Shown here piece after piece: positions 824-51,920 of a stretch of 64,000 nt of DNA. Location: positions 1,568,001-1,632,000 of the forward strand of contig OY763927.2 in the NCBI GenBank assembly GCA_963667665.2, in the 5' to 3' direction. Source of the DNA: Nitrosopumilus sp. GTDB taxonomy: Archaea > Thermoproteota > Nitrososphaeria > Nitrososphaerales > Nitrosopumilaceae. Within the stretch, counting starts at the first letter, position 1. The number at the start of each line of letters is the position of its first letter. The translations under genes were made by a program, and so were the position numbers. The notes beneath the pieces are model-generated. The model was not told where the DNA came from. It searched no databases and saw nothing but the letters and a program-made list of their open reading frames with translations.

Positions 824-1537
824 TTATTTAGTTACGTGACCTTTCAAATCTTTTACAATATTTTTAATTTCTTTTTCAGTTAGAGCATCTTGTCTGCTCA
901 TCAGAAAATGATTGATTCTATCCAAGCTTGACACAAAAACAGAACGATACCTCTTATTGTATTCAAAATTTCCCTTTACAGATAACAGAACATTTGTTAC
1001 ACGTACCTTTCTGAATATGTCTTGAAGTGAAATCCATAAAACTCTACCAGCTCTTTCAGTTTGTTCGTAGGGGCTAAAGCTTTTGTTATTATTTGCAAAT
1101 TGATTACTCCAGTTTTTTACTTCAATCATGTAGACTCCTTTAGGACAAACAACTACAATATCCATTTGAGCTGATTTTAGATTCTTTTTTCCGTTATAGG
1201 TAACCCAATGAGATAATTCAAGTCTCACTCCACACAAAATATGATAACTGTCATCAAGCTTTAACAATTCCTCGATGACTTCATTTTCTCCATGGGTTCC
1301 TGTAACATATTTTCCAACTTTTTTATACTGAAATTTATCAACTTGTCTTTTGTAATGATATCTTTTAACTTCTGAAAAAACAGTTCCAAGTAAAGATTTT
1401 TTTCCCTGACGTTGTTTTTGCATTTTTCCATAAAATTCCTTTCTGACCCTATCCATATCATCAACGTTTTTGACTTCGTTTGGTAACTTGTTTAGGAGAC
1501 TCCTTTCACTGTCTGCCATTCCATAAATGATAGCCAT
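824..1537 (-). CDS. NERD-domain nuclease-related protein
   Basis: G.HGE..V, QMDIVVVCPKGVYMIEVKNW and SPYEQ motifs. Confidence 0.85.
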   Translation of the reverse strand: MAIIYGMADSERSLLNKLPNEVKNVDDMDRVRKEFYGKMQKQRQGKKSLLGTVFSEVKRYHYKRQVDKFQYKKVGKYVTGTHGENEVIEELLKLDDSYHILCGVRLELSHWVTYNGKKNLKSAQMDIVVVCPKGVYMIEVKNWSNQFANNNKSFSPYEQTERAGRVLWISLQDIFRKVRVTNVLLSVKGNFEYNKRYRSVFVSSLDRINHFLMSRQDALTEKEIKNIVKDLKGHVTK

Positions 1538-1618
1538 GTTTTGAGTACGCGATTGTAATATTTTAGAAATTATTCTCCAATCTAGTCATAATTGTTTTAA
1601 CTTGATCACAATATTTTT

Positions 1619-1762
1619 TTAATCATTTAATAAAATCCTCTCAAGAATTTCTATTTGACCCCATTTTTCAGCCTCTGTGGATAAATCATCTTTGAAATAT
1701 CCAACCATGTATACTGATTTGATATCTTCAAGTAAAATTTTGATTTTCTCTTCACTAATCAT
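1619..1762 (-). CDS. Small hypothetical protein (47 aa)
   Basis: Manual translation MISEEKIKILLEDIKSVYMVGYFKDDLSTEAEKWGQIEILERILLND; ATG 2 nt after the stop of the upstream gene. Confidence 0.55.
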   Translation of the reverse strand: MISEEKIKILLEDIKSVYMVGYFKDDLSTEAEKWGQIEILERILLND

Positions 1763-1764
1763 GC

Positions 1765-2145
1765 CTATTTACCAAACCTATCAATACTGTAAGGCCAAAA
1801 AAATAACGTAGAGCGATCAAACCATTGTGGATACCATCCTCTATCTTCAAGCCAGTTGTGAATTTCTCTATACACCCCATCAACATAGACTGTTTTTATT
1901 TTCATTTTACTTAGCATTGAATTTTTTACTCCTACTTCAGACAATGGAACATCACCATAATCTTCGGCTTCAGAATCAAATACTGGAAGTCCTTTGTAGA
2001 ACCAAGCACAGTTATTTTGTTGAGTCCATATTCCTCCCTTTCTATTAAGAAGTTTTTCAGATTTTTTCATAAAGTTAATTTCTGGAATCTTTTTTGTTAG
2101 TCCTTTCATGATTTGTTTTCCAGCTTGTTCCAGATGGAGGTTCAA
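1765..2145 (-). CDS. Hypothetical protein, aromatic-rich (start may be ATG 2109)
   Basis: ORF track; co-oriented with element cargo. Confidence 0.6.
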   Translation of the reverse strand: MNLHLEQAGKQIMKGLTKKIPEINFMKKSEKLLNRKGGIWTQQNNCAWFYKGLPVFDSEAEDYGDVPLSEVGVKNSMLSKMKIKTVYVDGVYREIHNWLEDRGWYPQWFDRSTLFFWPYSIDRFGK

Positions 2146-2238
2146 ATTTCAATCCATTGAATTCTATTGAATATATCTCACTTGTATATTATGCACTCTT
2201 TACATAATTATTCCTTGATTTTATCTTATACTACTAAA

Positions 2239-2337
2239 TTAACTCCATCGATTAATCTGATAGATTGCAGTTTCTCGTGAAATGTTTTCAGATTTCATTA
2301 GTTTTTTAATAATTTTTTCATCTATTTTTTCTGTCAT
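2239..2337 (-). CDS. Possible 32-aa peptide
   Basis: Manual translation MTEKIDEKIIKKLMKSENISRETAIYQINRWS. Confidence 0.3.
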   Translation of the reverse strand: MTEKIDEKIIKKLMKSENISRETAIYQINRWS

Positions 2338-2356
2338 ATCTTATTATTTGTCTTTA

Positions 2357-3334
2357 TCATATATAATTATTTTTATCTTTAGCATACCAAATAATGAAAT
2401 CTGAAACTGCAGACATGTATTCTTTTGCAAGTCCAGCTGTTTTCTTGAATGTGATTAAATGTATAAATTTTTTTTTCCCAAATATTTCATCACAAAGAAC
2501 TCTAACTAAATGAACATTTGCATCTCCTATTTGTATAAAACAACTACCACTTTCATGAAGTAATCTTTTTGCTAAAAGTAATCTAGTTCGTAAATATGAA
2601 AGATACGAATGAATACCCAGTTCCCATGTATCTTTAAATGCTTTAATCATTTCTGGCTCTTGTGTCAGATCATCATCTTTTCTATCAGTGACAGTTTTAG
2701 TTTGTGTAAATGGTTGAAAGTTTGAACCATATGTGATTCCATAAGGAGGATCTATGAAGACCATCTGGATTTTTTCTCCCATTTCTTCTTTTTCCAAAAG
2801 CGAGTTCATTACAAGAAGTGAATCACCTGCAATCAAACGATTGGACCAGCTTTGATCATGCTTGTAAAATTCAATTGCGTCCCTTAATGGAGGATTATTT
2901 TCTGGCATTTCAAAAAAAGGAAATAATGTTTCTTGTTCTTGGTCTTGTTTTTTTAATATTTTACCAATTATTGTCATAGGATCAATTTTTTCGTGTCTGT
3001 GAAGTGATACTGTATCAACTTCAAAATTAGAACTTTCTACTTTTCCAGACCATTCAAGTTGTGGATCTAGACGAGGATCAAATGAATATTTTTTTGCAGG
3101 CAAATCTACATCAGATTCTGGAGTCACTAGACCAACTGGTGGATTGTTAGCCCTTTTTTCTTTTTCGTGAATGTATTGTTTAATTGCAATTTTTTTCTTT
3201 TTCGGGTCTCTAATTGTGGCAAGCTTTGTTCTCTTTCTAGATTTTCTTGTAGATTTTCTTGTAGATTTTCTTGTAGTTTTAGTTGTATCAAGTTCTTTTA
3301 GTCCAAATTTTGATAGTATTTTTTTCCTTGCCAC
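2357..3334 (-). pseudogene. Truncated N6-adenine DNA methyltransferase (type III Mod-like, beta class)
   Basis: NRLIAGDSL, IDPPYG, YLSYLRTRL, GSCFIQI motifs present; ends before the FxGxG SAM-binding motif. Confidence 0.75.
3238..3276. repeat. 12-bp tandem repeat TAGATTTTCTTG x3 (encodes TRKS repeats)
   Basis: Units at 3238, 3250 and 3262 read directly. Confidence 0.9.
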
Positions 3335-3383
3335 AAAACAGATGTGATTTTGAGTCTTTTAACTAAATCGATCATTCTTATTT

Positions 3384-4490
3384 TCATAATCCTATATTTG
3401 GTACAGTGATATGATTTGACTCAAAATAATCTATGAGATTTTTTAATTTATTTTCAAGACTTTGATATTTTTCATTCATCTGTTTTAGATTATTTTCAAC
3501 TGCTTTGAAATCTGACATTGTAAGATATGGTTCTGCCTCTAGATACATCTCTTTTTTCTTATCTTCTGATAACTGATAGTATGTATCTAAATAGAAACTA
3601 TGACCCATTATAGCCTCGGCAAAGTCTCTCCCTACAGCATTTCCAACTGTTGTCCTGAAGAACTTTCTAAGGGAGTGAAGATGTATTGCTTGTCTCCCAT
3701 TCTCATCTTTAACATTAAGATCTGGAATTGCTCTAACTATTTCCCTTAACTCAGTCTGCAATGTCTTGATGATTGACTCAGCAATAAATGGGCCTCTATG
3801 TCTATACACTGTTGCAAATATTTGCTTCTCAATAATCTGTGGATCTTTTATTCCTTCAAACCAATTATGGTATCTTTTCAAATAATCTTTTAGTGCATTT
3901 GTTGCTTCTGCTGTCAAAAAGCATTCCCTTGATTGTCTTGTCTTTGTTGTGTTTGCTCTAAGATACACTTTGATTGGATTTTCATTAAAATCAATATCTG
4001 AAATCTTTAGATTAACAACCTCGCCAATTCGCATTCCAGTGGACACTGCAACAATTATTGCCAAGTATAATTTTGGTTTTGCATTTCGTAACAACCTTGC
4101 AATAATCTCTTTGTCAAGTGGCATCTCTCGTATTCTGATTACCTTGGGTACCTTGACTATCAGTTTAAGATCTTCTGAATCAATCTTTATTCCCATATGT
4201 CTAAGATATCCCTTATTCACAGATAATGCATTACGAATTGTTCTTGCACCTCTGCCTGTCTTATCCATATACACAACAAATTCTTTGAAAATCTTGAGAA
4301 TGTCTATCTTCTCTTCTTTATAGTAGTCAAGTAGGTCATACTCATCCATATCATAATTTTCTTTCAAAAATTCTCTAAATAGATGAATTCTGGTTTTGTA
4401 GGATTTTATGGTATTATGGCTATGTGAAATAACATACATAGAATCTAGATATTCTGTTTCATAATTTTCTCTGCATAATTGAAGTGTCAT
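3384..4490 (-). CDS. Tyrosine recombinase/integrase
   Basis: TGMRIGEV (R), TKT (K), HSLRKFF (HxxR), MGH and downstream YY; N-terminal SAM-like domain. Confidence 0.92.
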   Translation of the reverse strand: MTLQLCRENYETEYLDSMYVISHSHNTIKSYKTRIHLFREFLKENYDMDEYDLLDYYKEEKIDILKIFKEFVVYMDKTGRGARTIRNALSVNKGYLRHMGIKIDSEDLKLIVKVPKVIRIREMPLDKEIIARLLRNAKPKLYLAIIVAVSTGMRIGEVVNLKISDIDFNENPIKVYLRANTTKTRQSRECFLTAEATNALKDYLKRYHNWFEGIKDPQIIEKQIFATVYRHRGPFIAESIIKTLQTELREIVRAIPDLNVKDENGRQAIHLHSLRKFFRTTVGNAVGRDFAEAIMGHSFYLDTYYQLSEDKKKEMYLEAEPYLTMSDFKAVENNLKQMNEKYQSLENKLKNLIDYFESNHITVPNIGL

Positions 4491-4869: not shown

Positions 4870-5187
4870 TTGAAATTTTGCCCCAAATGTGAGGTCAAAT
4901 TAAAAAAAAGTGTTTCTGGCCTTCAATGTTCAAAATGTGGTTATACTGAAGAAGAAAAAGTAAAACAAACAAAAAAAGTTGTAAGTGAACAAGAACCAGA
5001 TTTCTCACTTCTTGCTTTTGAAGGAAGTGAAGGAGAAGAACAATATTCATCAATCAAAATCGATTGTGCAAAATGTGGACATGATGAAGCAGTTTGGTGG
5101 ATGTTTCAAACAAGAAGTGCAGATGAACCTACAACCAGATTTTATCGTTGTCAGAAATGTAAATACACTTGGCGTGATTACACATAA
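4870..5187 (+). CDS. tfs: Transcription factor S (RpoM/TFIIS family)
   Basis: MKFCPKC and QTRSADEPTTRFYRCQKC zinc ribbons. Confidence 0.95.
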   Translation: MKFCPKCEVKLKKSVSGLQCSKCGYTEEEKVKQTKKVVSEQEPDFSLLAFEGSEGEEQYSSIKIDCAKCGHDEAVWWMFQTRSADEPTTRFYRCQKCKYTWRDYT

Positions 5188-5221
5188 CGTTTAACTGGAA
5201 CTTAAAGTCAACAAAGTTGAT

Positions 5222-5968
5222 TTGACTTTTGGAGCAAAAACAAGTGGTTCAGACGATCTAAAGGCTATAATCTCTGCAATATCAACACTTGTTGAAGAAG
5301 CTACTTTTGTTGCAACAGCAGAAGGAATTACATTTAGAGGAATGGATCCATCACATGTTGCACTTATTGATATATCCTGGCCTAATTCAGCATTTGAAAA
5401 ATATGAATGTGATAGTGATATAAAATTTGGAGTAAGAATAGATGAATTTTCAAAACTTATCAAAAGAGCAGACAAAAAAGATAGTATAGAGATTAGTATC
5501 TCTGAGCAAAATATGTTACTTGTAACAGTTGGAAAAAATAAAAAATACAAAATGCGTTTAATTGAAAGTTCTGCAACTGACACTCCGTTGCCAAAAATTC
5601 CTTATGATTCAAAAATTACTTTGTCTTCATCAAAATTTGATAAGATTCTTGGCGATGTACAAGTTGTATCTGACTATCTAACAATTCAAACATCTGATTC
5701 AAAAGTAGATTTTTCAGGTAAAGGTGACTCTGGTGAAGTTGTAATTGATCTTGACAAAAATGATGAAGACATTGAAGAAATTTTTTCAAAAGCAGACAGT
5801 GTAGGTACTTACAGTCTTGAATATCTTAATCCAGTGATAAAAGCAGTAGGAAATACTGCAGGCTTGATTACATGTGAGTTTTCGAGCGCAAAACCACTGA
5901 GAATTGAATTCAAAGTAGCAAATATTGGCAGAATTCACTTTTACTTGGCTCCACGCGTGGAAAGTTAA
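5222..5968 (+). CDS. pcn: DNA polymerase sliding clamp PCNA
   Basis: MDPSHVALID, YSLEYL, FYLAPR motifs. Confidence 0.97.
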   Translation: MTFGAKTSGSDDLKAIISAISTLVEEATFVATAEGITFRGMDPSHVALIDISWPNSAFEKYECDSDIKFGVRIDEFSKLIKRADKKDSIEISISEQNMLLVTVGKNKKYKMRLIESSATDTPLPKIPYDSKITLSSSKFDKILGDVQVVSDYLTIQTSDSKVDFSGKGDSGEVVIDLDKNDEDIEEIFSKADSVGTYSLEYLNPVIKAVGNTAGLITCEFSSAKPLRIEFKVANIGRIHFYLAPRVES

Positions 5969-6003
5969 AGCATTTAAAGATTAACTAATTCAGGTATTTT
6001 GAA

Positions 6004-7407
6004 ATGCGACTTGTTATAAAATATGGTGGAACATCAATTTCTACTACAAAAGACATTCAAGCTGTAGCTAAACACATTAACTCATTATCAAATAAACATC
6101 AAATTTTAGTTGTTTGTTCTGCGATAAGTGGAACTACTGATGATCTTATAGAAATATCCGAGTCTATAAAAAGAGAAAATAAAACAAAAGCTGAACAACT
6201 TGCAGCAAAAATAATCAATAGACATAAACAATTAGCAAAACAAACAATAAAAAAATCTGATGTACGAAAAAAATTACTGACAAAACTAGATCTAGACTTT
6301 ACAGAACTTCTTGCATTAATTGATGGAATGGTATTACTGGGTGAAGTAACACCTAGATCAATGGATTATCTAATTTCATTTGGTGAAAGATTATCAATAC
6401 AATTAGTTTCATCAGCAATTAATGATTCAGGTAAAAAATCAATTTCTCTTACTGGTAAAGAAGTAGGAATTGTAACTGATTCTAACTTTGGTGAATCTAG
6501 ACCACTTTTTGATACAACCAGACTAAGAGTATCAAAGACAGTAGATGCTTTGTTCTCAAAGAAAACAATTCCTGTTGTAGGAGGATTTGCAGGTGCAGAT
6601 CAACATGGACATGTAACTACCTTTGGTAGAGGCGGTTCTGACTATTCTGCAACAACTATTGGTTCTTGTATTAAAGCTGATGAAATTTGGTTGATGAGTA
6701 ATGTAGATGGACTTATGACAGCAGATCCAAAAATTGTTAAAAATGCAAAATTACTCAAAGAAGTATCATACATAGAAGCAATTGAGATGGCTCTGTTTGG
6801 TGCCAAGCAGATACATCCACGAACATTTGAGCCTCTTCTATCAAAGAAAATTCCAATGAAGATCAGAAATTCTTTCAATGTAAAAAATGAAGGAACACTT
6901 GTTACTGCATCTACTTCTTCAGCTGCTAAAAATACCGTAAAATGTGTAAGTAATGTTCGAAATAATGGATTAATCGACATTCAGGGAGGCAGTATGGTTG
7001 GAACACCTGGAACTGCAGCCAAAATATTTTCAACATTGGCAAAATCTGGAATAAATGTAATGATGATCTCTCAGAATCCTTCCGAATCAAGCATTACAAT
7101 TGTGGTAAAGAATACAGATCTTGACAAAGCAGTTAGTGCATTAGAAATGGAATTACTAGGAAAAATTATCAAAAAGTTAGAAGTCACTACGAATGTAGCT
7201 ATTATTGCATTGATTGGTTCAGGTATGCGAGGAACTGTTGGAGTTGCTTCAAAAGTTTTTGGAGCAATTGAGAAAAACAAAGTTAACGTATCGATGATTA
7301 CTCAAGGTTCATCTGAACTTAATCTTGCATTTGTTGTAAAAAATTCTGATGCCAATGCAGCAGTGAAAGCTCTACATAATGAATTTAAACTTGATAAAAT
7401 TAATTGA
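6004..7407 (+). CDS. lysC: Aspartate kinase
   Basis: KYGGTS, GRGGSDYSA, ADPKIV and two ACT domains. Confidence 0.96.
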   Translation: MRLVIKYGGTSISTTKDIQAVAKHINSLSNKHQILVVCSAISGTTDDLIEISESIKRENKTKAEQLAAKIINRHKQLAKQTIKKSDVRKKLLTKLDLDFTELLALIDGMVLLGEVTPRSMDYLISFGERLSIQLVSSAINDSGKKSISLTGKEVGIVTDSNFGESRPLFDTTRLRVSKTVDALFSKKTIPVVGGFAGADQHGHVTTFGRGGSDYSATTIGSCIKADEIWLMSNVDGLMTADPKIVKNAKLLKEVSYIEAIEMALFGAKQIHPRTFEPLLSKKIPMKIRNSFNVKNEGTLVTASTSSAAKNTVKCVSNVRNNGLIDIQGGSMVGTPGTAAKIFSTLAKSGINVMMISQNPSESSITIVVKNTDLDKAVSALEMELLGKIIKKLEVTTNVAIIALIGSGMRGTVGVASKVFGAIEKNKVNVSMITQGSSELNLAFVVKNSDANAAVKALHNEFKLDKIN

Positions 7408-7445
7408 GACAAAATCATTTAAAGGAATAAATTCCATCACATCCA

Positions 7446-8909
7446 TTGAATAAACAAATTCCTATTTTGGTTATTGTAATTTTTGTAGCTAGTATTATTT
7501 CTGTTTCTTCAATATCTGATCAATTTGTTGATGCAGGTTCTAGAAAAAAAATTCACTTTACTCAAACTATTACATCTTCTCAAGATCCAGGACAAGGACA
7601 TCAAAATCACCAATTAGCACTTATTCTATCACCAAACGAAGGAACTCTTTATGATGGATCTATGACATTTACCTCAAGTAAGCCTGTTCAGATTGTCGTT
7701 TTACACGAAATTAACTCTAAACAAGTAAAAGGTCAACCTATCTGGACTGTTGATGGAAATTCTGTTTATGGTATGTCTTTGATTGATTTAGAGGAAAAAT
7801 CAGGATCTTTTGAGTTTACAGGAGCTGCACTTGCATTACATTCGTCTGATTCAAAAGAATTTACTGTAACTGTAAGTGTTGATGGTTGGATACGTGGACA
7901 ACCTACTGAAGTTATAATGCAAAAAATTGAATTAGAAAAAGAAGACCCTTCATTTTTACTTTCAAAAACAAATGTTCCAGCTATAATCCCAATGCATAAA
8001 GGAATCTATGCAGGAAATCAAATTCTTTACATTATCACTGATGGTAGTGATGAGGATTATTCAAAAACTCTCTCAGAAAAACAAGGATGGAATGTTGAAC
8101 TTGCTTCAGCTATTTCAAATGTTCCAGAAGATGCTCTTCAAAAATTGTTCATTTTTAAAAATGGAATTAAAGGTGATGGAATTTATGGATTCCAAGATGA
8201 AATATTTTCTAGTACTCCATCACAAGAATCACAGTACAGCGCATTGAGTTCTATAATTGAAGTTACATGGAAAATAGGTCAAAAAGAAATAATGTTTGAA
8301 TCTGCAGCAGATGTAATTGCTGCAGAAGAAGGTGGTAGAGTTGAGTTTAATGAAACAGGAATTGTTCTAAATACTCCTCAAATTGTTTGGCCTGATGGAC
8401 AGATGCTAGTACGTTCTGATAAAGAAATTACAGATGAAACTCCATATGGTGGAGGTCAGATAATTGAAATTAATGAAGAAGAATTGACTGTAACCTTTGT
8501 TGCTCATAGAGGCTGGGGACCTGATGGAAAAACCATCTACTATATTGTTACTGATGCTACCCCTTCAGGACCTGCAGAAACAATGGGAGTTGTTTCATCT
8601 CCAACATCTGCAAATTTAATAGCTCATTCCGGAGCAGTTGATCTTTTCCAATTCAAAAATGGAATTAAAGGCACTGGCCCACTAGGATTTCAACCTGGAA
8701 TTGCTGGTGCCGCTCTTGGTGATACAAATTACAGTCCTATGTGGCGAATTTATCTCGTTGAATGGAATGATGCAAAATCAGCAAAAATTTTAGAGACAAA
8801 ATCAGATATTGATTCATTTCGTGCAGATGATCTGATATCTGTAAGTATTGCACGACCAACTAATAGTGATCATATAGTTAACTGCCCATTCATAGATCCA
8901 TTCCAATAG
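7446..8909 (+). CDS. Secreted protein with two repeated domains (DUF7482-like)
   Basis: Signal peptide; duplicated FKNGIKG.G..GFQ and YS....W motifs. Confidence 0.7.
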   Translation: MNKQIPILVIVIFVASIISVSSISDQFVDAGSRKKIHFTQTITSSQDPGQGHQNHQLALILSPNEGTLYDGSMTFTSSKPVQIVVLHEINSKQVKGQPIWTVDGNSVYGMSLIDLEEKSGSFEFTGAALALHSSDSKEFTVTVSVDGWIRGQPTEVIMQKIELEKEDPSFLLSKTNVPAIIPMHKGIYAGNQILYIITDGSDEDYSKTLSEKQGWNVELASAISNVPEDALQKLFIFKNGIKGDGIYGFQDEIFSSTPSQESQYSALSSIIEVTWKIGQKEIMFESAADVIAAEEGGRVEFNETGIVLNTPQIVWPDGQMLVRSDKEITDETPYGGGQIIEINEEELTVTFVAHRGWGPDGKTIYYIVTDATPSGPAETMGVVSSPTSANLIAHSGAVDLFQFKNGIKGTGPLGFQPGIAGAALGDTNYSPMWRIYLVEWNDAKSAKILETKSDIDSFRADDLISVSIARPTNSDHIVNCPFIDPFQ

Positions 8910-8951: not shown

Positions 8952-9752
8952 TTGAAATTGACTGGTAAACTCTACATTGTTGGTGTTGGTCCTGGACACC
9001 ATGATCATATGACATTTAGAGCAAAAGAAGCAATTATTGAAAGTGACACAATTGTTGGATATGAAACTTATGTAAATTTAGTTCAAGATCTAATTGAAGA
9101 TAAAACAGTTTATCGTTATGCAATGACACAAGAAGTTGAAAGAGCTCATCAATGCATTGATCTTGCAAAATCAGGAAAAATTGTTTCACTTGTATCAAGT
9201 GGAGATCCTGGAATTTATGGAATGGCTGGATTAATTTATGAAACACTTGCGGAAAGTGGTTGGAATCCTAAAGATGGTTTACAAGTTGAGATCATTCCAG
9301 GTGTGTCAGCATTAAATTCTTGTGCATCAATAGTTGGATCACCTTTGATGACTGATTTTGCAGTTGTTAGTATGAGTGACTTGTTAGTTCCATGGGAAAT
9401 TATTCAAAAAAGAGTTGAAGCTGCAGCACAAGGTGATTTTGTAATTGTAATTTATAATCCATCTAGTAAAAAAAGAATTCATCAATTACAAGACACTAGA
9501 AAAATTCTTCTAAAATATCGCAAACTTACAACTCCTGTTGCAATTATTAAAGGAGCATTTAGAGAATCTGAAACAGTTGTTATGACTGATTTAGAAAATT
9601 TGCCAAATCATTCAGACAAATTAGGCATGATTACTACTGTAATTATTGGAAATTCCTCTACATACACTTACAAAGATTTGATGATAAATCCAAGAGGATA
9701 CAAATCAAAATATAATTTAGAAGAACAGACCAATCCAGATCTCAAAGTCTAA
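8952..9752 (+). CDS. cobJ: Precorrin-3B C17-methyltransferase
   Basis: VGVGPG, SSGDPGIYGMAG, SDLLVPW, YNP, NPRGY. Confidence 0.95.
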   Translation: MKLTGKLYIVGVGPGHHDHMTFRAKEAIIESDTIVGYETYVNLVQDLIEDKTVYRYAMTQEVERAHQCIDLAKSGKIVSLVSSGDPGIYGMAGLIYETLAESGWNPKDGLQVEIIPGVSALNSCASIVGSPLMTDFAVVSMSDLLVPWEIIQKRVEAAAQGDFVIVIYNPSSKKRIHQLQDTRKILLKYRKLTTPVAIIKGAFRESETVVMTDLENLPNHSDKLGMITTVIIGNSSTYTYKDLMINPRGYKSKYNLEEQTNPDLKV

Positions 9753-10795
9753 CATCTTTTCTTTATTGTCTCGTATAGTTCTTCACTAAGATTTAGCTTT
9801 TCTCTAATTGGAGAAATTATTTTTACCAAATAATTTCCAACTGTTTGTTTCAAATCGCCTGGATGTAATTTCTTTTCAACAAAGTCTGTTTCTAATTGAT
9901 TGTAATTTGTATATGATATATTTCCACCAAATTTTTCAGGTCTTTCAACATTTATCTCATCAAACTCATGAAACACTACTGTTCTTGCAATCTCTAATAG
10001 TGGATTATTCTGAATATTTGCTTCTTCACACCATGCTTTGCTGATTTTTTTCTTTATTTCATCATCTGTATTATGAACAAAGACGCCTGAATTTGGATCT
10101 GATTTACTCATCTTTCCTAATATCTGAGAATCACTAGTATCTGCAGGTTTTGAAAGTCCTGGTAATAGTTTATGGTGAACAGCCACAGGAACTTTCCATT
10201 TCTTTTTAGGGAAAATTTCTCTTACCAACATGTGGATCTTTCTCTGATCCATTCCTGCATGAGCAATATCTACATCCAAATAGTGAATATCAACTGCTTG
10301 CATTGCTGGATAAAGTAAATTTGATAGTTCAATTTTTTTATCGTCTTCAGAACGACCCATTATTGTTAGAGTTCTCATTGTTCTAGCAAGTGACATATGT
10401 TTTGTAAATTTAATGAGTTCAGTCCAGTAATCTGTATTTTCTTCATACAATTTTGAGCCCAAAACAATTTCTACATTAGGACAAACAAGATTGAATGCAT
10501 CTTGATAATATTTTGAAACTTTTGAAATTGTTTCCCAATCTCCACCTAACTTATCATTAATCAGAGTATGCCAATCTGCAAGAAATACAGTACAATTTAC
10601 TCCTGCTCTTACAAAATCATTAATCTTGAAACCAGTACTGATTAAACTACCAAGATGTAAAAAACCAGAAATTTCTAAGCCAATGTAATGTTTTGGTGAA
10701 GAATTTGTCTTGAATAATTCAACTAATTCATCACGTGTCACTACTTCTTCAGTTGGTGGTCTTTCAATCAAATCTACTTTTTCTAAAATATCCAA
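9749..10795 (-). CDS. tyrS: Tyrosine--tRNA ligase
   Basis: HLGS, YPAMQAVD, GMDQRK, KMSKS. Confidence 0.96.
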   Translation of the reverse strand: MDILEKVDLIERPPTEEVVTRDELVELFKTNSSPKHYIGLEISGFLHLGSLISTGFKINDFVRAGVNCTVFLADWHTLINDKLGGDWETISKVSKYYQDAFNLVCPNVEIVLGSKLYEENTDYWTELIKFTKHMSLARTMRTLTIMGRSEDDKKIELSNLLYPAMQAVDIHYLDVDIAHAGMDQRKIHMLVREIFPKKKWKVPVAVHHKLLPGLSKPADTSDSQILGKMSKSDPNSGVFVHNTDDEIKKKISKAWCEEANIQNNPLLEIARTVVFHEFDEINVERPEKFGGNISYTNYNQLETDFVEKKLHPGDLKQTVGNYLVKIISPIREKLNLSEELYETIKKRC

Positions 10796-10852
10796 ATCAA
10801 AACAACTTTTGAGATCTAAGCCTATAAAGTTATTCTAAACAATTCTAAATTT

Positions 10853-11041
10853 TTACTTACATTTTTTCTTGTGTTTTCTTAAATTTTCTTCACTCATAAA
10901 TTCAGTCCCACAATTTCGACATTTCACTTTTTTCTTGCTATGTGCTTTTTCCTGATGTCTCTCTAATCTTTCAGAATCTGATAGAACTGTACCACATTTT
11001 TTGCATTTTAATTCATTTTTACTGGATCCAAATAATCCCAT
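10853..11041 (-). CDS. Small C2H2-type zinc-finger protein
   Basis: CKKC..H...H and CRNC..H...C. Confidence 0.8.
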   Translation of the reverse strand: MGLFGSSKNELKCKKCGTVLSDSERLERHQEKAHSKKKVKCRNCGTEFMSEENLRKHKKKCK

Positions 11042-44856: not shown

Positions 44857-45231
44857 TTATTGAATAGGAATACTTTTTTCAGTATTCTCAATTGGAATTG
44901 TAATTGTTAGAACACCTTCAGCATATTTCGCAGAATTAACTTGCTCTTCACCTTCTTTGATTCTCATTGGAAGTTTAATTTTTTTATCAATAATGTCTGG
45001 TCGTTGTTTCCAAATTATAGTGCCAGTAATCGCTTCATCTTTTTTTGCATTAATTGAAAGAACATTTCCATGAATCGATAGTTTAATTTCTTTTTTTGAA
45101 AATCCTGGAATATCAATTTTAATAATTAGATTATCATTTACTTCAATCATGTCAACTGGTGGCAATACAAACTCGTAGAATTCTCTTGATTTACTTCCAA
45201 TCTCTTTGATTACTTCTCTAACAAGTCCCAT
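44857..45231 (-). CDS. Small heat-shock protein (Hsp20 family)
   Basis: PPVDM, DIPG, AKYAEGVLTITIP. Confidence 0.92.
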   Translation of the reverse strand: MGLVREVIKEIGSKSREFYEFVLPPVDMIEVNDNLIIKIDIPGFSKKEIKLSIHGNVLSINAKKDEAITGTIIWKQRPDIIDKKIKLPMRIKEGEEQVNSAKYAEGVLTITIPIENTEKSIPIQ

Positions 45232-45405
45232 TTTGTGTTACATTCTCAATTTTTGGTTATAAACCTTGGTGGGATTTGGGTACTTATAGTATATCATCCA
45301 TTTTAAATAATTTAGTCCAGAAATGAAGCGACTCAAAATAATTACACTAAACGAATTTCGTAGTAACCCTTTGCCTTTTAACCATGTTTTCAAACTGTTA
45401 CATAA

Positions 45406-45729
45406 ATGCAAGGGGAAAGCATCCAATTCCAAAAGCCTAGAAGTACCATTTCAAGAAAACAGTTTCTGGAAAGAGTAATTGATTGGCATGAGGAGGGTAA
45501 TCATGTGATACAAATTCTAACATCATATGATCAAGATTATAGAAAAAAAATTTGTAGTGCATGCACAGAAGAGCAGCAACAAAAACGAAACTGTCTAGAA
45601 TTGGACATGTTTACAGACGAGGGAATTCAGCTAAAACATTGTAATCATATGGATAAAGCACGTGTCAGAAAACATAAACAGCTAATTAGAAATCATATGC
45701 AGTTACATCCTGCGCTTCAAATTATCTAG
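45406..45729 (+). CDS. Hypothetical Cys/His metal-binding protein
   Basis: CSAC-x9-C-x15-CNH; TATA-like TTTTAA about 25 nt upstream. Confidence 0.6.
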   Translation: MQGESIQFQKPRSTISRKQFLERVIDWHEEGNHVIQILTSYDQDYRKKICSACTEEQQQKRNCLELDMFTDEGIQLKHCNHMDKARVRKHKQLIRNHMQLHPALQII

Positions 45730-46719
45730 CTCATCTGAAAGAGCTTTTCTTTTTGGTACATATTCTGAAAAGAATGTCTCTTTCTTTACATGTTCTTTGA
45801 TTTTTTCTATTTCTCTACTAAGATTATTCATGGATTCAACAACTGCTTCTTCAGGAGAAATTCTCATTTTATTGTAGCATAAAGAATTCCTGTCAAGCAC
45901 ACGTCCAGTAATTTCTTTTGGTTTTTCGTATGGTTTATCATCATTGAATTTTCCAAATCTTCTGTAATTGTGAGATGCAGTATGAACACCATATAGAAAA
46001 GTGTAGGCTAACAATGATTTTTGGGGTGGAGTAGTATGGAAGTGCCCTTTTGTAACCGATGTCATGTTGCACCAAACATCTTTTCCAAAAATTCTCTGAG
46101 ATAGTCTTAGCCAATTAATGTAGTTGGTATCAAATGATGCAAATTTTACATTAAATCTTGGGTATTTTTTCTCAAGAATATAGTCTAGCTTTGCTGTAAA
46201 CAAGCCAGGAGTAACAATTTCTAAATCAATAGTTGGACAAATAATTTGATTGTGTGGATTTTCTAAATTTTCAAGATGAGATGCAAAATCTTCAACTGAC
46301 TGTTCTCTGTTGACCTCAATATCTGACAAAAATAATGTTTTTAGTGTCTTTTGAATTTCTAGAATAGACTGTCTTTCAGCCTCTCTTTTTTTGTAATTTT
46401 TTATAAAATCATAGCCAATATCTAAAATACTGTTTGGATATTTGTCCTTCAAATCAGTATATTTTGAAATGATATTATTTTTTGTCTGCTTTAGTGTAAG
46501 CGGACTTCTTATCTGCACCTGATGGTACAGCTATACAAGATTAGTATCAAAACTAGTCTTCAAATCTTCTGCTTTTTCCAATTCACTTTTTATTACAGCA
46601 ATATTTGGAAATTCAATTTTTTTACCATCAATGGTAACCTCAATTACATTTACGCCCAACATCTGATCTTTAACATCTGTTTTTTCTTTTGCAATATTTT
46701 CTACAAGTAATTCAGTCAA
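45703..46719 (-). pseudogene. Divergent TGT-fold-like protein interrupted by an in-frame TAG at 46531-46533
   Basis: ORFs 46531-46794 and 45703-46518 share a frame (NLV-TAG-LYHQVQIRS); N- and C-terminal segments resemble tRNA-guanine transglycosylases by eye; likely TTG start 46719. Confidence 0.55.
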
Positions 46720-46729
46720 TTTTATGTTT

Positions 46730-46751
46730 TGGGTATATTCCAATATACCCA
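46730..46751. promoter_or_regulatory. Operator-like palindrome TGGGTATATT-CC-AATATACCCA
   Basis: Perfect 10-bp inverted repeat between divergent genes, overlapping a TATA-like element. Confidence 0.65.
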
Positions 46752-46817
46752 CATACACTACATGCAAACATAAATGCTGGTTTTGTTGGCTCATTAGTAT
46801 AATACCATGATCTATTT

Positions 46818-46973
46818 TTGAATGATATTATTTTTGCTTGTCCTGCATGTAAAATGGAAATGGAAAAAGAATTTATAAATACAAAATCAAAGAGAAAAAT
46901 TACATATTTTGTAAATTGGTATTGCAGTACGTGTGAACATAGGGATTTTTCTCAGCACGATGTAAAATTTTAG
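46818..46973 (+). CDS. Zinc-ribbon microprotein (51 aa), not in ORF track
   Basis: TTG start; MNDIIFACPACKMEMEKEFINTKSKRKITYFVNWYCSTCEHRDFSQHDVKF. Confidence 0.65.
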   Translation: MNDIIFACPACKMEMEKEFINTKSKRKITYFVNWYCSTCEHRDFSQHDVKF

Positions 46974-47042
46974 AAATTAACACAAGTCTGCATATTGCAT
47001 TAAACGATCGATACTGTCAATAATGGATAGCATTATGGTATA

Positions 47043-48378
47043 GTGTCGGTGAAAAATTATCAAAGAAAAAAAATTCCGCGATCCAATACATGATTTTATT
47101 ACAGTAGATCAATACGAATTAGAAATTATCAACTCTCCAATGTTTCAGAGAATGCACAACATAAAGCAACTAAGCCTTGGATACTATGTTTACCATGGAA
47201 CAGATCATTCAAGATTTGGACACATGATAGGTGCCATGCATTTGGCAGGAAAAGCATTTGATTCTATGAAAATAAATTCTGAAAAATTTGGATCATTTGA
47301 TCCTGATGATACAGACAGAGCAACTATTCGTATGGCAGCACTACTACATGATGTGGGACATGCACCATTTTCTCACTCCCTTGAGAGTCTACTAGATGAT
47401 GACCATGAAGATTATTCTCAATATCTAATTGATTATTATTTTAAGGACCATATTGAGAGTGCAGGAGTAAAGACAGAAGACGTAAAGAATTTGATTATTG
47501 GCGCATACAAAAAGCCATACTTGAGTAAAATTGTCAGCGGACAACTAGATGTTGACAGACTTGACTATCTTCTTCGTGACTCTTACTATGCAGGAGTAAC
47601 ATACGGTCTGTATGATTTGGGACGGATAATTGATCAATTAGCAATAGTTGATGGAAAATTTGTTGTATTAGAGGGAGGATATGAGGCAGTAGAACAGTTA
47701 ATCTTTGCAAGATATCAAATGTATCAGCAAGTATACTTCCACAAAACAAAAAGAGCGTTTGAGCTGATGCTACAAAAGTGTGGGCAGATTTTAAAAGATA
47801 ACGGACTGTTGGAAATTCCTTCACTCAAAGATCTAAAAACAGCAGAAGGTCAAGAGGAATATTTTAAATGCGATGATAGATGGTTCCAAAATAAAATTTA
47901 TGATGAAAAAAATCCTCCAGAAGTAAAGGTAATTGCAGACATGATAAAAAAGAGAAGACCATTCAATGAGACCTATTCTCCTAGTACATACAGAAAGCCT
48001 GAGGACTCTCCAAGTGCAGGGCCTGATAATTCTGTTAAAGTATTAGAGCCAATACAAAAAGCACTAAAAAAGAAATTGCCAGAGCTTGGAATAGAAGAGC
48101 ATGAATTTCTAACAGATGTAACAGAGAGATCTCCGTATAATTTAGTCCCTGACTATGTGGCAGAGCATGACAATACAAAAGAGAGCAATGCAATTAGAAT
48201 TTTTTACAAGCATAACAAATATTCTGAGCCAATTGAAAAAAGATCTCATGTTGTGTATACTCTGGCGGCAAATCCTCCGCATATGATGCGTGGCTTTGTA
48301 ATTCCTGAGAAATATAATAAAGTCAAAGAATATCTCAAGGATACCTTTGATTATATTATTCCAGAAAGGGAAATCTAG
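47043..48378 (+). CDS. HD-domain phosphohydrolase, SAMHD1/YwfO-like dNTPase family (5' end frameshifted in A8, or non-canonical start)
   Basis: FRDPIHDFI (upstream of ATG 47140), FQRMHNIKQL, HSRFGH, LLHDVGHAPFSH, DVDRLDYLLRD, VYFHKT. Confidence 0.88.
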
Positions 48379-48452
48379 TCATGAATAATATTATAACTAT
48401 GTTCCTATTACTTGAAAATACGTATACAAATGTTCGAGAGATGTGATTAGAT

Positions 48453-49025
48453 ATGGCAATTGATAATTTAACAAAAGAAGACATTGTACTGTCTTTAATC
48501 AAAAAAGCCACAGACTATCAAGGAACAGACAGTAGTGGAATTAATGGCAAAAAGGCATTGCAAAAAAGCCTGTATCTTTTCAATCAGAAATTTAGCATGT
48601 TTAGTTATAGGTGGGGAGACTATGGCCCTCTTTGTGGTGAAATTCAGCATATTGCTGAAGATCTAATCATAAAAGGACACGTGGTAATTACTAATGTTCC
48701 AACAAAAAAGCAAGAGGCTGTAATTCAAAATTTACAATTCTCAGCACCTGCTTTTGACGTTGAAATCCCTGAAAGTGTAAATCATGAATTAGACGAGATT
48801 GTATCCTTTGTTGCAGGCAGATCTCCACGAGATCTGGAATTACTGGCATCTGTTCATTTCTGGGCAGTACGTCAGCAGGAATTGATGGATGAATACTCTG
48901 CAGAATATGTTCTAGAAAAACTAACAGAGCTAAAGCCTGATGCACATTTTACCAAAAAGGACGTTGAATATGCAATTGAAGTTTTAGAAACACACGAATA
49001 TCTTATTTCTGAAGAAAGCGACTAA
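48453..49025 (+). CDS. YwgA/SocA(DUF4065)-like winged-helix protein
   Basis: GKKALQKSLYL, Y.W..YGP, LELLASVHF. Confidence 0.7.
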   Translation: MAIDNLTKEDIVLSLIKKATDYQGTDSSGINGKKALQKSLYLFNQKFSMFSYRWGDYGPLCGEIQHIAEDLIIKGHVVITNVPTKKQEAVIQNLQFSAPAFDVEIPESVNHELDEIVSFVAGRSPRDLELLASVHFWAVRQQELMDEYSAEYVLEKLTELKPDAHFTKKDVEYAIEVLETHEYLISEESD

Positions 49026-49084
49026 TTATTTTTTATATTATTAAATGCGCAAATTCTATTATCTATCTCTTTCATTTACACATA

Positions 49085-49258
49085 TTGGGTGGATTAGGAA
49101 AATGTCCTTGTTGCAAGGAATGGATAAATCTTACAGAGTATCATGACAAGGAATTAAACGTCAAGGTAATGGTTTGCAGAGCATGTCATGACATTATAGA
49201 GGAATACATCAAAGTTCAAGCAATATGTGGCAAAAAAACAAAAAGAAAACGATCATGA
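49085..49258 (+). CDS. Zinc-binding microprotein (57 aa), not in ORF track
   Basis: TTG start; MGGLGKCPCCKEWINLTEYHDKELNVKVMVCRACHDIIEEYIKVQAICGKKTKRKRS. Confidence 0.65.
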   Translation: MGGLGKCPCCKEWINLTEYHDKELNVKVMVCRACHDIIEEYIKVQAICGKKTKRKRS

Positions 49259-49326
49259 AAAGATCTACAGCATGAGTAAAAAAATAAAATTAGTATTGCA
49301 TCTGTAGATCTGCAAAAAATTTTGTA

Positions 49327-49737
49327 TTGACGAGTTTTACTGATGTAATCGATGACATATTTGACAATACCAATTCAGATGAGGATTTTATTTACGAGGT
49401 ATGGTACATAACGTCTCAGCTTACAACTTATTCTACTGACATTGGAGAATTCCCTAGATATGCATTAGAAACTCTGAGTCGTGGTGGTGGAGATTGTGAG
49501 GATACTGCCATACTGATTGCAGACATGCTACGATCATCTACACATACAAAAAATTGGACTATACAATTAGTCTATTTTGATTCAGATAGTCCTAGTTTGG
49601 CCTTGGATGTTAACCATGTTGCAGTTTTAGTAGATACTGGAAAGTATAGCTATATTGTAGAGTCTACAGCAAAAGATGATGTTACCATGAATATGTGGAA
49701 CAATGCAAATATTTCCGGCTGGTTCTACGATGTCTAA
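49327..49737 (+). CDS. Transglutaminase-like cysteine protease domain, probably a 5'-truncated fragment
   Basis: ETL..GGGDCED, NHVAV, VEST triad; no signal or N-terminal domain. Confidence 0.65.
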   Translation: MTSFTDVIDDIFDNTNSDEDFIYEVWYITSQLTTYSTDIGEFPRYALETLSRGGGDCEDTAILIADMLRSSTHTKNWTIQLVYFDSDSPSLALDVNHVAVLVDTGKYSYIVESTAKDDVTMNMWNNANISGWFYDV

Positions 49738-49887
49738 TTTCTCTGCAAAAAATTTCAAGAAATATACTAATTTGTTGAAAAATTAGGGCATTTTTTTGTG
49801 TTATATTTACACCAGTGTTCTATACCTTGATAGATTTCTGGGTAAAATTTGATGATAGACAATTTTTTTATTAAAATAAAAAAGAAT

Positions 49888-50013
49888 TTAGAATTTTCGT
49901 GAATCGCCCTCTAAAAGACCTGAACCATGATGAATTCTATCAATGTGTTTTGAAAGATCTTCTTTATTCTCAAAAACTGATTCACAGTAAGGACATTTAA
50001 TTTCATCAGTCAT
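49888..50013 (-). CDS. C2H2 zinc-finger microprotein (41 aa), not in ORF track
   Basis: MTDEIKCPYCESVFENKEDLSKHIDRIHHGSGLLEGDSRKF. Confidence 0.8.
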   Translation of the reverse strand: MTDEIKCPYCESVFENKEDLSKHIDRIHHGSGLLEGDSRKF

Positions 50014-50106
50014 AATTGTACATTGGTAAAGGTGTTATTAAATAATTTTCCAATTATTTAACATGATAGATTTTTTAATCAATTAATTTCTCTGTTTTGG
50101 TAACTT

Positions 50107-50688
50107 ATGATAATTGTAATTGAAGGCGGAGATCAAGCAGGCAAGTTAACTCAATCAACTTTGTTGGAAAAAGCACTTAAAAAAAGAAAGATCAAAACTA
50201 AAATATTTCATTTTCCTGACTATAAAACTCCAATAGGAAAAGAAATCAGAAAATATTTGGATGGAAAAAGAAAATTTCCTCCTCAAGTAATTCATTGTCT
50301 TTTAGCTGCAAATAGATGGGAAAAACTAAATGAAATTTTATTAGCTCAAGAAAAAAATTCGGTTCTAATTATGAATCGATATTATCATTCTAATTTGATT
50401 TATGGTATAGCAAATGGTATGAAGGAAAAATGGCTTGAGAATCTTGATGTTGGTCTTCCAAAAGCTGATCTTGTAATTTTACTTGATGTCACACAAAAAG
50501 AATCATTTCATAGACAGAAAACTCACAGAGACAAATTCGAAAAAAATGAAGAATTTTTAAGAAAAATATCTAAAATCTATCGAACAACTGCTAAGAAAAA
50601 ACATTGGAAAATAATTGATGCTTCAAAATCTAAACAAGAAATACATGAAGAAATTTTGAAAATATTCTCAAAGAAAATAAGATTATGA
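50107..50688 (+). CDS. tmk: Thymidylate kinase
   Basis: IEGGDQAGKLTQ, FPDY, ANRWE, NRY..S. Confidence 0.95.
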   Translation: MIIVIEGGDQAGKLTQSTLLEKALKKRKIKTKIFHFPDYKTPIGKEIRKYLDGKRKFPPQVIHCLLAANRWEKLNEILLAQEKNSVLIMNRYYHSNLIYGIANGMKEKWLENLDVGLPKADLVILLDVTQKESFHRQKTHRDKFEKNEEFLRKISKIYRTTAKKKHWKIIDASKSKQEIHEEILKIFSKKIRL

Positions 50689-51920
50689 AAAAAAATCATC
50701 TAGACATAATTGATCCTATTCATGATTTCATTCGAGTTTATGAACATGAACTATCCATAATTGATGATCCACTTTTTCAAAGATTAAGACGGATTAGACA
50801 ACTTTCAGGTGCTCATTTAACATATCCGGCAGCTCAACATACAAGATTTGAGCATTCATTGGGAGTTATGCATATTGCTAGTCAAGCAGGTCATGCATTA
50901 AATGAAAAAGGAATTTTAAAATTAGATGACATTGAAATTCTTAGATTAGCTGGTCTCTTACATGACATAGGACATGGACCATTTTCTCATCTTTTTGAGG
51001 AAATAATACAGGAAAAAAAAATTTCACATGAAGACTTTGGTAAAGAAATTATTCTAAAATCTGAGATTGGTGACAATTTATCAAAAAATGGTTTTAATAA
51101 AAAGCTCATTACAAAAATTGCCTTTGGAGATTCCAAACTTCAATACATGAATGAAATTGTTTCAGGTACACTTAGTGCAGATATGATGGACTATTTACTT
51201 AGAGATGGTTATTTTACAGGAGCAGAACATGCAAAAATTGATCACAAAAGAATCACTCAGTCACTTGATGTACATCAGAAAAAACTAGCCTTGGAACGTT
51301 CAGCATTGTATTCTTTTGAATCAATGATGCATTCTAGATATCAAATGTTCAAGGCAGTCTATTTTCATAAAACAGTAAGAGCAGCAGAAGTAATGTTGAT
51401 TGAAGCACTAAGATTATCTGATGATGAATTTGGTTTTACTAGTTTTAATCTAAATGAATATGTTAAACTCACAGATGAATACGTTTTATCAACTCTTATA
51501 TCATCAAAATCTTCAAAACTAAAACGTGCTAGACAATTTGCACAAGATTATCAAGACAGGAAATTACTAAAATGTGTATTTGAACGAATTCTGACTAGCA
51601 AAACTAACTTGAAAAAAATACGAACTAATGAATTAAGAACTATCATTTCTAAAAAATCCAAAGTTGATGAGAATGAAATTTTTGTAGATAGTTCTGTTAC
51701 TCCATCTATTCCTCTTGCACCATCTAAAAACGAATCAAAATCTATAATTTTGATAACAAATGAGAATGGAAAATCCTCTGCAAAGGAGATGCCAATTTCA
51801 GATATTCCTGTGGTTTCAGCAATTTCTGGATTCATGAATATTCTTAGAGTTTATACCCATCAAAATAACAGAAAAAAAGTTGAAATTGCTGCAAAATCAA
51901 TCCTTGGTGATCTAAAGTGA
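50685..51920 (+). CDS. HD-domain phosphohydrolase (dNTPase family), core copy
   Basis: [36 protein letters not shown]; in operon with tmk and pyrH. Confidence 0.93.

Follow-up and report, generated by a model that had tools for sequence, protein, structure and literature searches.

An accessory island of Nitrosopumilus carries a TGT-fold gene with a Cys4 partner beside an HD-YwgA-like gene pair: two candidate defence-like modules at a variable hotspot

Barrels of the tRNA-guanine transglycosylase (TGT) superfamily recur outside tRNA modification; the parts of the literature drawn on here place them in DNA modification (DpdA), in protein deazaguanylation (Cap10) and in the repression of effectors (TIM-B). 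We describe what would be a further case, archaeal and distinct in sequence, in which the active site is unusual and a zinc protein is the obligate partner; it comes from a 64,000-nt stretch of Nitrosopumilus sp. (OY763927.2; hereafter the window, whose positions serve as gene coordinates). The gene pair in question, a TGT-fold barrel (B) and a Cys4 zinc microprotein (A), lies in an accessory island together with the genes of an HD phosphohydrolase (D) and a YwgA-like protein (E). Our preferred reading, which we hold with moderate confidence, is that the island is a hotspot insertion carrying two autonomous modules of a toxin-antitoxin-like or defence-like kind, B-A and D-E, which are often found together and do not depend on each other. 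The island marks a variable hotspot in the ammonia-oxidising archaea, a group whose defence repertoire is poorly known.

Some described barrels that can be compared with B are found in conflict systems. Cap10, of the type IV cyclic-oligonucleotide-based antiphage signalling system (CBASS), is a TGT-family barrel without a zinc site that has been remodelled to hold a protein partner; its nucleophile, D248, is retained, and its functional partners are a CD-NTase and Cap9, a QueC-like protein, as set out in part of the study that describes it (10.1101/2025.04.06.647259). TIM-B proteins (PF14350) are TGT-related barrels that are paired with varied effectors, and the part of a preprint of October 2026 used here proposes that they repress the effectors linked to them (10.64898/2026.10.19.760177). 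In the P4-like TIM-B type, P4 beta of gop-beta-cII, the same part of that preprint describes a gene that converges on and overlaps its neighbour. DpdA, a DNA preQ0 insertase, is a barrel of the superfamily that serves DNA modification and restriction, and QTRT2 is a non-catalytic member of the TGT family itself.

The D-E pair has relatives of another kind. In Bacillus subtilis the HD gene ywfO and the gene ywgA stand in that order, and EF1143 is an active enzyme of the same HD type. A domain of DarG, from the DarTG system, reportedly binds and inhibits DarT (Deep et al. 2023). Our full-text literature search, supplements not included, returned no functional study of YwgA, nor of ywfO/COG1078 beyond mentions.

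The interval 45232-50106 of the window is an accessory insertion of about 4.9 kb in the slot between the divergent genes Hsp20 and tmk, and the open reading frames (ORFs) that the original prediction placed between these two genes are all present (Table 1). On the right the flanking operon runs in the order tmk-HD2-pyrH from 50107. The flanks are well conserved: tmk of four relatives (G098, G181, G191 and G236) is 87-91% identical to that of the window, and HD2 in the compared relatives is 86-93% identical over the part compared. The slot between them varies. It is empty in G098 and G236, of the same genus, where only 78 bp separate the start codons of Hsp20 and tmk. A C2H2 ORF (H) is its sole gene in G191, it holds 1.9 kb of genes unrelated to the island in G181, and the slot of G426 (locus L090) retains an E fragment as its only island gene. 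At the other extreme, the slot of G013 (L006) spans about 11.6 kb and contains A, B, D and E together with extra genes. Comparison across relatives, which the original prediction had proposed as a check, shows the island to be accessory and not core, with E present in 17 and B in 15 of 301 genomes of the family. The G+C content of the interval does not differ from that of its flanks. Public sequencing runs that contain the stretch include sponge metagenomes, and the host is sponge-associated.

That the island adjoins tmk, HD2 and pyrH could be taken to mean that its genes are housekeeping paralogues, D being a second hydrolase that sanitises dNTPs (deoxynucleoside triphosphates) or other nucleotides, accompanied by a regulatory subunit, and B a nucleic-acid modification enzyme. 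Both bacteria and archaea carry the HD-YwgA pair, which is ancient and widespread, and YwfO-type HD proteins are treated, in the relevant part of one paper (PMC4993169), as nucleotide-sanitising housekeeping enzymes in Firmicutes that are kept in a minimal genome. We nevertheless consider this explanation very unlikely. The whole interval is absent from genomes of the same genus, E and B are found in few genomes of the family, and pseudogenes are frequent. The same genes occur at another chromosomal site in G073, where F (a small CxxC...CxxC gene), E, D, a broken B, and A adjoin Mrr and DUF2130 genes. Moreover, the genome already encodes a canonical archaeal TGT (ArcTGT) and the conserved HD2.

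At the level of fold, our model places B in the TGT superfamily with high confidence. We modelled the intact homologue of G013 (340 aa) from a 20-row alignment and obtained a mean predicted local distance difference test (pLDDT) of 90.8 and a predicted template modelling score (pTM) of 0.90. The 50 best Foldseek matches are all TGTs (E ~1e-7, TM 0.5-0.6). Against representatives of the PDB, the model scores highest with ArcTGT (1iq8; Z 20.3, root mean square deviation 3.9, 287 aligned), followed by TGT (3unt; Z 19.6) and QTRT2 (6fv5; Z 19.1), with which it shares the (beta/alpha)8 barrel and the C-terminal hairpin and helices. Cap10 (9ntn_B) scores Z 14.3 and DpdA (7ui4) Z 12.7, the latter no better than unrelated TIM barrels (up to 13.3). 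The TGT fold named in the original prediction is therefore well supported, even though B is only 9-12% identical to these TGT structures over 277-287 aligned residues.

In sequence B stands apart. We scanned the island ORFs with the PADLOC, NCBIfam, Pfam and PHROG models, and B matched none of them. PF01702, the family of the catalytic TGTs, is matched neither by B nor by its close relatives; only two distant zinc-bearing relatives match its C-terminal part, below the cut-off. A profile search of 1.84 billion representatives returned 138 B-family clusters at E <= 1e-3, 49 of them at E <= 1e-30; the distant clusters are hypothetical proteins of 350-400 aa, one of them labelled 'uncultured archaeon'. 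A fold search of the viral database BFVD with B gave no convincing match. The language-model scores of the ESM Atlas, 0.77 for B with a PF14350 cluster as its best match and 0.83 for A, are leads only.

The active site of B appears to have been rebuilt. Catalytic TGTs use a nucleophilic aspartate, which accepts the ribosyl group, and a second aspartate as general acid. The genome's own ArcTGT carries the motifs GCDTFD and TDSGGYQ and the CxCxxC zinc site, and the distant zinc-bearing relatives of B retain CxCxxC...H and a GID motif. We aligned the B family to these archaeal relatives by profile (hhalign probability 99.8%, E 2.6e-30) and found that some 45 residues with the zinc knuckle CxCxxC are deleted in B, that GvH (in GvHTAS) of B lies opposite GID, and that an invariant Glu of B lies opposite the Asp of IPD. 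The His, H246, is conserved in at least 90% of 20 sequences. The zinc-bearing relatives, for their part, can be aligned with the ArcTGT of this genome at its zinc motif (hhalign probability 62%), while a direct hhalign comparison of B with that ArcTGT was insignificant. From the motifs and these profile alignments, rather than from superposition, His246 most likely occupies the position of the nucleophilic Asp, and Glu135 would occupy that of the general-acid Asp. By motif, then, B differs from the catalytic TGTs both in its zinc site and in its nucleophile.

These features bear on what B could do. The DpdA-like exchange of guanine in DNA that had been suggested for it is unlikely, because the position of the nucleophilic Asp, a residue catalytic in DpdA, holds His and because the zinc site is deleted. 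Neither PADLOC nor NCBIfam gave a DpdA model match, and no DpdB-like partner emerged when the island was scanned with Pfam and PADLOC models. Nor is B the tRNA enzyme, because the genome retains a normal ArcTGT. In our reading, B has probably ceased to exchange bases in the classical way and might instead be a nucleobase- or nucleoside-binding, or a hydrolytic, component working with A. Together, sequence and model suggest that B forms a new, narrowly distributed branch of the TGT superfamily which, paired with A, has been recruited outside tRNA modification.

In the window, however, B is broken. The original prediction had described a gene of 338 codons on the minus strand; the frame exists, but it is not an intact gene, as an in-frame TAG at 46533-46531 interrupts it at codon 63, a position occupied by Gln in the intact homologue of G013. 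The TAG is covered, with zero differences, by contigs of three runs that belong to three different studies (X1 record 2, X6 record 15 and X7 record 22); the nonsense mutation is thus real in the population rather than an error of assembly. In this genome, then, B is a pseudogene and its module a decaying remnant. Such decay is common in the family. In a sample of the class, 18 of 401 genomes contain B, and seven of the 21 B matches are broken or fragments (G000, G073, G458, G061, G339, G171 and G079). By family, B occurs in 17 of 223 genomes of the window's own family and in none of 177 from 19 other families, so that in the genomes sampled it appears restricted to Nitrosopumilaceae.

A adjoins B in every substantial copy of B that we examined: in 11 of 11 loci (one of them from G137), in 12 of 12 larger loci, and also in G426, G458 and L086. 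In the window the two genes converge and their 3' ends overlap by 27 nt; the convergent overlap is 4-27 nt in the nearer relatives, and in distant relatives A lies downstream of B on the same strand. Eight residues are invariant among 13 homologues of A (W27, Y45, I49, C50, C53, C63, C79 and K89). No Pfam, NCBIfam, PADLOC or PHROG model matched A, and its structure model (pLDDT 84.3) found only generic helical matches in the PDB (Z <= 6.6). A prediction of the A-B complex scored 0.00, which is no answer and weighs neither way. The Cys pattern of A, CxxC-x9-C-x15-C, is unlike the CxCxxC...H of the TGT zinc site. The idea that A substitutes in trans for the lost zinc module of B was not retained, given this difference.

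Several neighbours of B-A are of the kinds usually met in defence islands or on mobile DNA. G013 has AbiEii and an IS5 fragment, G073 has Mrr and DUF2130, G154 has Mrr, G062 has AIPR and ThsB-TIR, and IS66 and IS240 occur in G097 and G276. In one genus the neighbours are ordinary genes (subtilase, cytochrome b).

Compared with TGTs, then, B has an obligate Cys4 partner gene and coexists with a separate ArcTGT. Like Cap10, it is without the zinc site and has a protein partner, but it scores nearer to the tRNA TGTs and most likely lacks the catalytic Asp that Cap10 keeps, and scanning the island ORFs with Pfam and PADLOC revealed neither a CD-NTase nor Cap9. The parallel in layout with TIM-B, as far as the preprint text used here describes it, is striking, since B, too, is found in islands and has a partner gene that converges on it and overlaps it. 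The partner of B, however, is a 107-aa Cys4 protein and not a restriction-type nuclease. The PF14350 hidden Markov model (HMM) matched neither B nor its relatives, hhalign gave probabilities below 1% when an alignment of 23 P4-beta sequences, or P4 beta alone, was compared with the B family or with its zinc-bearing relatives, and the PDB matches listed for B include no TIM-B structure.

D has the domain architecture of the SAMHD1/EF1143/YwfO proteins, PF01966 (HD; 43.9 bits, cut-off 22) together with PF19276 (HD_assoc_2; 47.6 bits, cut-off 23.1), the metal-binding H...HD...D residues (in HSRFGH, LLHDVGH and DVDRLDYLLRD) and a YwgA-like neighbour, in agreement with its earlier identification as a hydrolase of this type. 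It differs from those enzymes in that it is accessory and that its family is often pseudogenised here; the activity of D is predicted. D and HD2 are paralogues with 35-43% identity. The anti-phage dGTPases are HD enzymes too, and the depletion of dNTPs that we envisage for D would be the same as theirs, but D belongs to another HD clade and has a partner gene: it scores 16.6 bits with NF041026 (anti-phage dGTPase; cut-off 400), and the PADLOC dGTPase model covers residues 25-121 only (E 1.2e-6).

The start of D is unusual. Its first ATG is at 47140, while the conserved N-terminus KFRDPIHDF directly follows a TGA at 47050 and offers no ATG, GTG or TTG; the probable start, judged from sequence, is a near-cognate ATT at 47056 or ATC at 47059. 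The same arrangement was seen in five genomes whose D is 68-89% identical to that of the window, with the N-terminus following an in-frame stop and beginning at ATT, ATA or ATC. All but one of the five also have a GGTGA- or GAGGT-like motif 3-6 nt before this point. Distant homologues of D start with ATG, GTG or TTG. Initiation at a weak, near-cognate codon may keep D scarce.

E is homologous to the C-terminal domain of DarG, which, according to part of one study (PMC8832971), neutralises DarT by direct binding. It matches the PADLOC DarG model (E 1.5e-9, model positions 172-328 of 329) and, below the cut-off of 250, NCBIfam NF048014 (E 3.2e-7, 29.9 bits), and a profile of 28 E sequences matches chain 7yk3_B of the PDB ('DNA ADP-ribosyl glycohydrolase', 189 aa) at E 1.8e-9 over E residues 32-146. 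The label 'uncharacterized protein YwgA' is carried by three of the 96 clusters of E homologues listed from JGI, which confirms the YwgA-like character first assigned to E. No Pfam family, Panacea (PF13274/DUF4065) included, matched E at E <= 0.1.

To see what accompanies E, we counted 38 E-type loci from species-representative genomes. An HD gene lies directly beside E in 24 of them, only a C-terminal HD remnant in two and none in 12, so that the conserved HD-YwgA pairing that had been foreseen is upheld. Planctomycetota, Anaerolineales and Baldrarchaeota together contribute 11 loci, and in every one of them the two genes are adjacent, in the order E then HD. Two genomes (G125 and G204; L067/L070) have, directly upstream of the HD gene, a 425-aa ORF with an E-like C-terminal part. 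The gene pair in the window is of the YwfO-YwgA type, with an HD gene putatively of the COG1078 kind.

Where one member of the pair decays beside an intact E, it is the HD gene: it is split into three ORFs in G067 (L058), truncated next to a transposase in G143 (L061), and reduced to a C-terminal stub in G327b (L068) and L084. This is the pattern expected if the HD is a costly partner. In the mechanism that we propose, E would bind D and restrain its hydrolysis of nucleotides, most likely dNTPs, with the weak non-canonical start codon limiting the supply of D, and D-E would act as a type II toxin-antitoxin-like or abortive-infection-like unit. The homology of E to DarG and the decay of HD genes beside an intact partner suggest, more generally, that prokaryotic SAMHD1-like enzymes can be kept in check by a dedicated protein inhibitor.

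Two side observations concern E-type genes. In G140 (L071) the E-type domain belongs to an ORF of 363 aa whose N-terminal part is unrelated. In G350 (L057, 2091-2678) a YwgA-like gene follows not an HD gene but that of a 195-aa Hjc/PD-(D/E)xK-like nuclease (PF01870, E 1.3e-5); the small YwgA-like protein may therefore combine with effectors of more than one kind.

Whether the two pairs belong together can be judged from how often they are linked. We counted 16 loci with B plus A, covering at least some 5 kb to either side as far as the contig reached and leaving out G137. An HD gene, an E-type gene or both lie within 3 kb of B in six of these, from three genera (G000, G013, G073, OZ241981.1/L086, G063 and G193), and within about 5 kb neither is present in the other ten. 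Conversely, HD-E occurs without B in nearly all of its loci, including all 11 non-thaumarchaeal ones. In the draw of 301 genomes both markers occur in four, at one locus in G000 and G073 and at different places in G061 (a B fragment) and G339 (fragments of both). Because B-A and D-E each occur alone in most loci, they do not form one five-gene system, and the original prediction's single co-regulated module does not stand; its expectation that the genes co-occur elsewhere held within the pairs, A with B and HD with E, while across the pairs it held in the six loci only and for the minor ORF C in none. We conclude that there are two autonomous modules, brought together by islands that gather genes or by cooperation.

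The six linked loci are also what a single nucleotide-targeting defence system would draw on, in which the TGT-like barrel and its zinc partner sense or regulate, perhaps as a constitutive negative regulator like that proposed for TIM-B proteins, and the HD effector acts under YwgA-like control. In G063 and G193 the HD protein is only 32-34% identical to D, and a small neighbour of it shows the E-type motif (hhalign E ~2e-4, probability 43-49%); these two look like independent lineages in which B-A became associated with an HD gene. B and HD are divergent in both the window and G063, and the repression of linked effectors proposed for TGT-related TIM-B barrels, in the preprint text used here (10.64898/2026.10.19.760177), would offer a precedent. 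Nevertheless, besides the many loci with one pair alone, B is broken in G000 and G073 although D and E are intact, and L086 has kept E, A and B and lost the HD. Co-location alone is weak evidence, because defence genes cluster in islands anyway, and we consider a single system unlikely.

A more specific version is, in our judgement, highly improbable. In it, B-A would be a nucleobase-sensing or base-removing switch derived from the archaeosine/queuosine machinery and would form one immune system with the adjacent HD-YwgA pair, a (deaza)purine signal, read or made by B-A, freeing the HD from its DarG-like inhibitor. If true, it would add an archaeal branch to the theme of 7-deazapurine enzymes in immunity (DpdA, Cap10, TIM-B) and would give the widespread HD-YwgA pair a function.

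The larger versions of the island raise a different alternative. In G013 the extra genes comprise a PolB-exonuclease-like gene, two zinc-ribbon ORFs, split AbiEii genes and an IS5 fragment; an unannotated ORF of 215 aa lies upstream of the split AbiEii genes. The PolB-exonuclease-like gene belongs to PF10108 and is flanked by the two zinc-ribbon ORFs, between D and B, in both G013 and G073. The window is without these genes, and L086 (OZ241981.1, 3737-8243) has a remnant: its order is PolB-exonuclease remnant, E, a protein of 478 aa with a winged helix-turn-helix (wHTH) at its C-terminal end, A, B and a zinc ribbon of a 73-aa type, a block that looks rearranged or permuted. In the window itself, contigs from other public runs diverge from our sequence at 45956, 46404, 46846 and 49296, and read depth is raised at about 45800-46050. 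These breaks and the raised depth may reflect variant forms of the island within the population. Contigs from an RNA library (run X17) map to parts of A, B, D and E; carry-over of DNA is possible, and they are no evidence of expression.

Features like these could mean that the genes are the cargo of a decayed mobile element or provirus and serve that element, in replication, anti-defence or DNA modification. The PF10108 gene and its zinc ribbons, the insertion sequence (IS) fragments nearby, the different places and orders of the block in G073 and L086, the breakaway contigs and the match of D to phrog_35128 (E 1.8e-41) all fit such an origin. Our gene-family scans and repeat search, on the other hand, revealed no capsid or terminase genes and no attachment repeats; as the original prediction had stated, there was no integrase in the island, and the repeat search around it found no convincing flanking repeats. 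Relatives of B or E were not found on viral contigs, in single-protein queries of limited sensitivity. We regard this origin as improbable, and it is compatible with the two-module reading, defence modules often riding such elements.

Several points weigh against two autonomous defence-like modules. No agent of mobility is seen, in that the island is without an integrase, and viral contigs yielded no relatives of B or E within the limits just given. PADLOC and NCBIfam name no defence system among the island ORFs; the original prediction was right that the combination is not a named system. The support for the D-E and B-A pairings comes from sequence and models, and the assignments of Asp to His and Asp to Glu in B come from the alignment of motifs and profiles. 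The analogy with DarG rests on one domain, because E shares only the C-terminal domain, is without the macrodomain and has an HD hydrolase for a partner, and PADLOC found no DarT among the island ORFs. The housekeeping role given to YwfO in the cited part of PMC4993169 means that the D-E pair need not be a toxin-antitoxin system. Lastly, the modules are co-located more often than independence would predict, and this excess leaves room for a functional coupling between them.

Table 1. Features of the island, its flanks and the related loci, by position
Feature	Position	Strand	Remarks
Hsp20	44857..45231	-	left flank, core; PF00011, E 4e-12
A, Cys4 zinc microprotein, Cys/His-rich, 107 aa	45406..45729	+	no family hit
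B, TGT-fold barrel, inactivated	45703..46719	-	338-codon frame, TTG 46719 to stop 45703
Inverted repeat TGGGTATATT-CC-AATATACCCA	46730..46751	.	between B and C
C, CxxC...CxxC zinc ribbon, 51 aa	46818..46973	+	orphan; gene status uncertain
D, HD phosphohydrolase, SAMHD1/EF1143/YwfO type	47056..48378	+	PF01966 and PF19276
E, YwgA-like, DarG C-terminal-domain homologue, 190 aa	48453..49025	+	profile matches
F, CxxC...CxxC protein, 57 aa	49085..49258	+	downstream of E
G, weak transglutaminase-core similarity, 136 aa	49327..49737	+	PF01841, E 0.0038, below cut-off
H, C2H2 zinc-finger ORF, 41 aa	49888..50013	-	PF00096, E 6.3e-5
tmk and housekeeping HD paralogue HD2	50107..51920	+	right flank, core; Pfam hits
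Near-cognate start pattern of D	window 47050-47140; also in L006, L021, L054, L055		
Extra-gene regions of L006 (G013)	4979-7395, 9730-10974		larger island version
Extra-gene regions of L021 (G073)	1101-3781, 7139-8190		larger island version

The original prediction had counted the zinc ribbon C and the zinc microprotein F as parts of the system. C reaches zinc-ribbon families only below threshold, and a tblastn comparison with the fetched loci (E <= 1e-2 to 1e-4) gave it no match, and F, 82% identical in G073 and 87% in L084, is seen in the closest relatives only, with no match above cut-off in Pfam or NCBIfam; neither is retained as a component. G likewise has no counterpart in any of the fetched loci compared. 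H is kept at the same place in the island-free G191, with 69% identity, and is thus local background rather than inserted cargo.

The perfect palindrome reported between B and C is in part confirmed. An inverted repeat with arms of 10 nt is present and is unique in the window, where 0.01 matches would be expected by chance; its 2-nt centre is not palindromic, and the region upstream of B lacks the repeat in both G013 and G073.

Of two metagenome scans, one (P0118) gave no locus and the other (P0081) gave a single one, L122, a 15-kb JGI contig with a zinc-bearing relative of B. Its neighbours encode Fic/DOC, a Cas4-like PD-(D/E)xK protein, an IS240 transposase, a wHTH protein, DUF4364, a transglutaminase core and HEPN. 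An upstream ORF of 164 aa was tried as an E-like gene and rejected, with an hhalign probability of 13% and a Pfam assignment to DUF4364. Transglutaminase-like similarity is found both in L122 and, weakly, in ORF G of the window.

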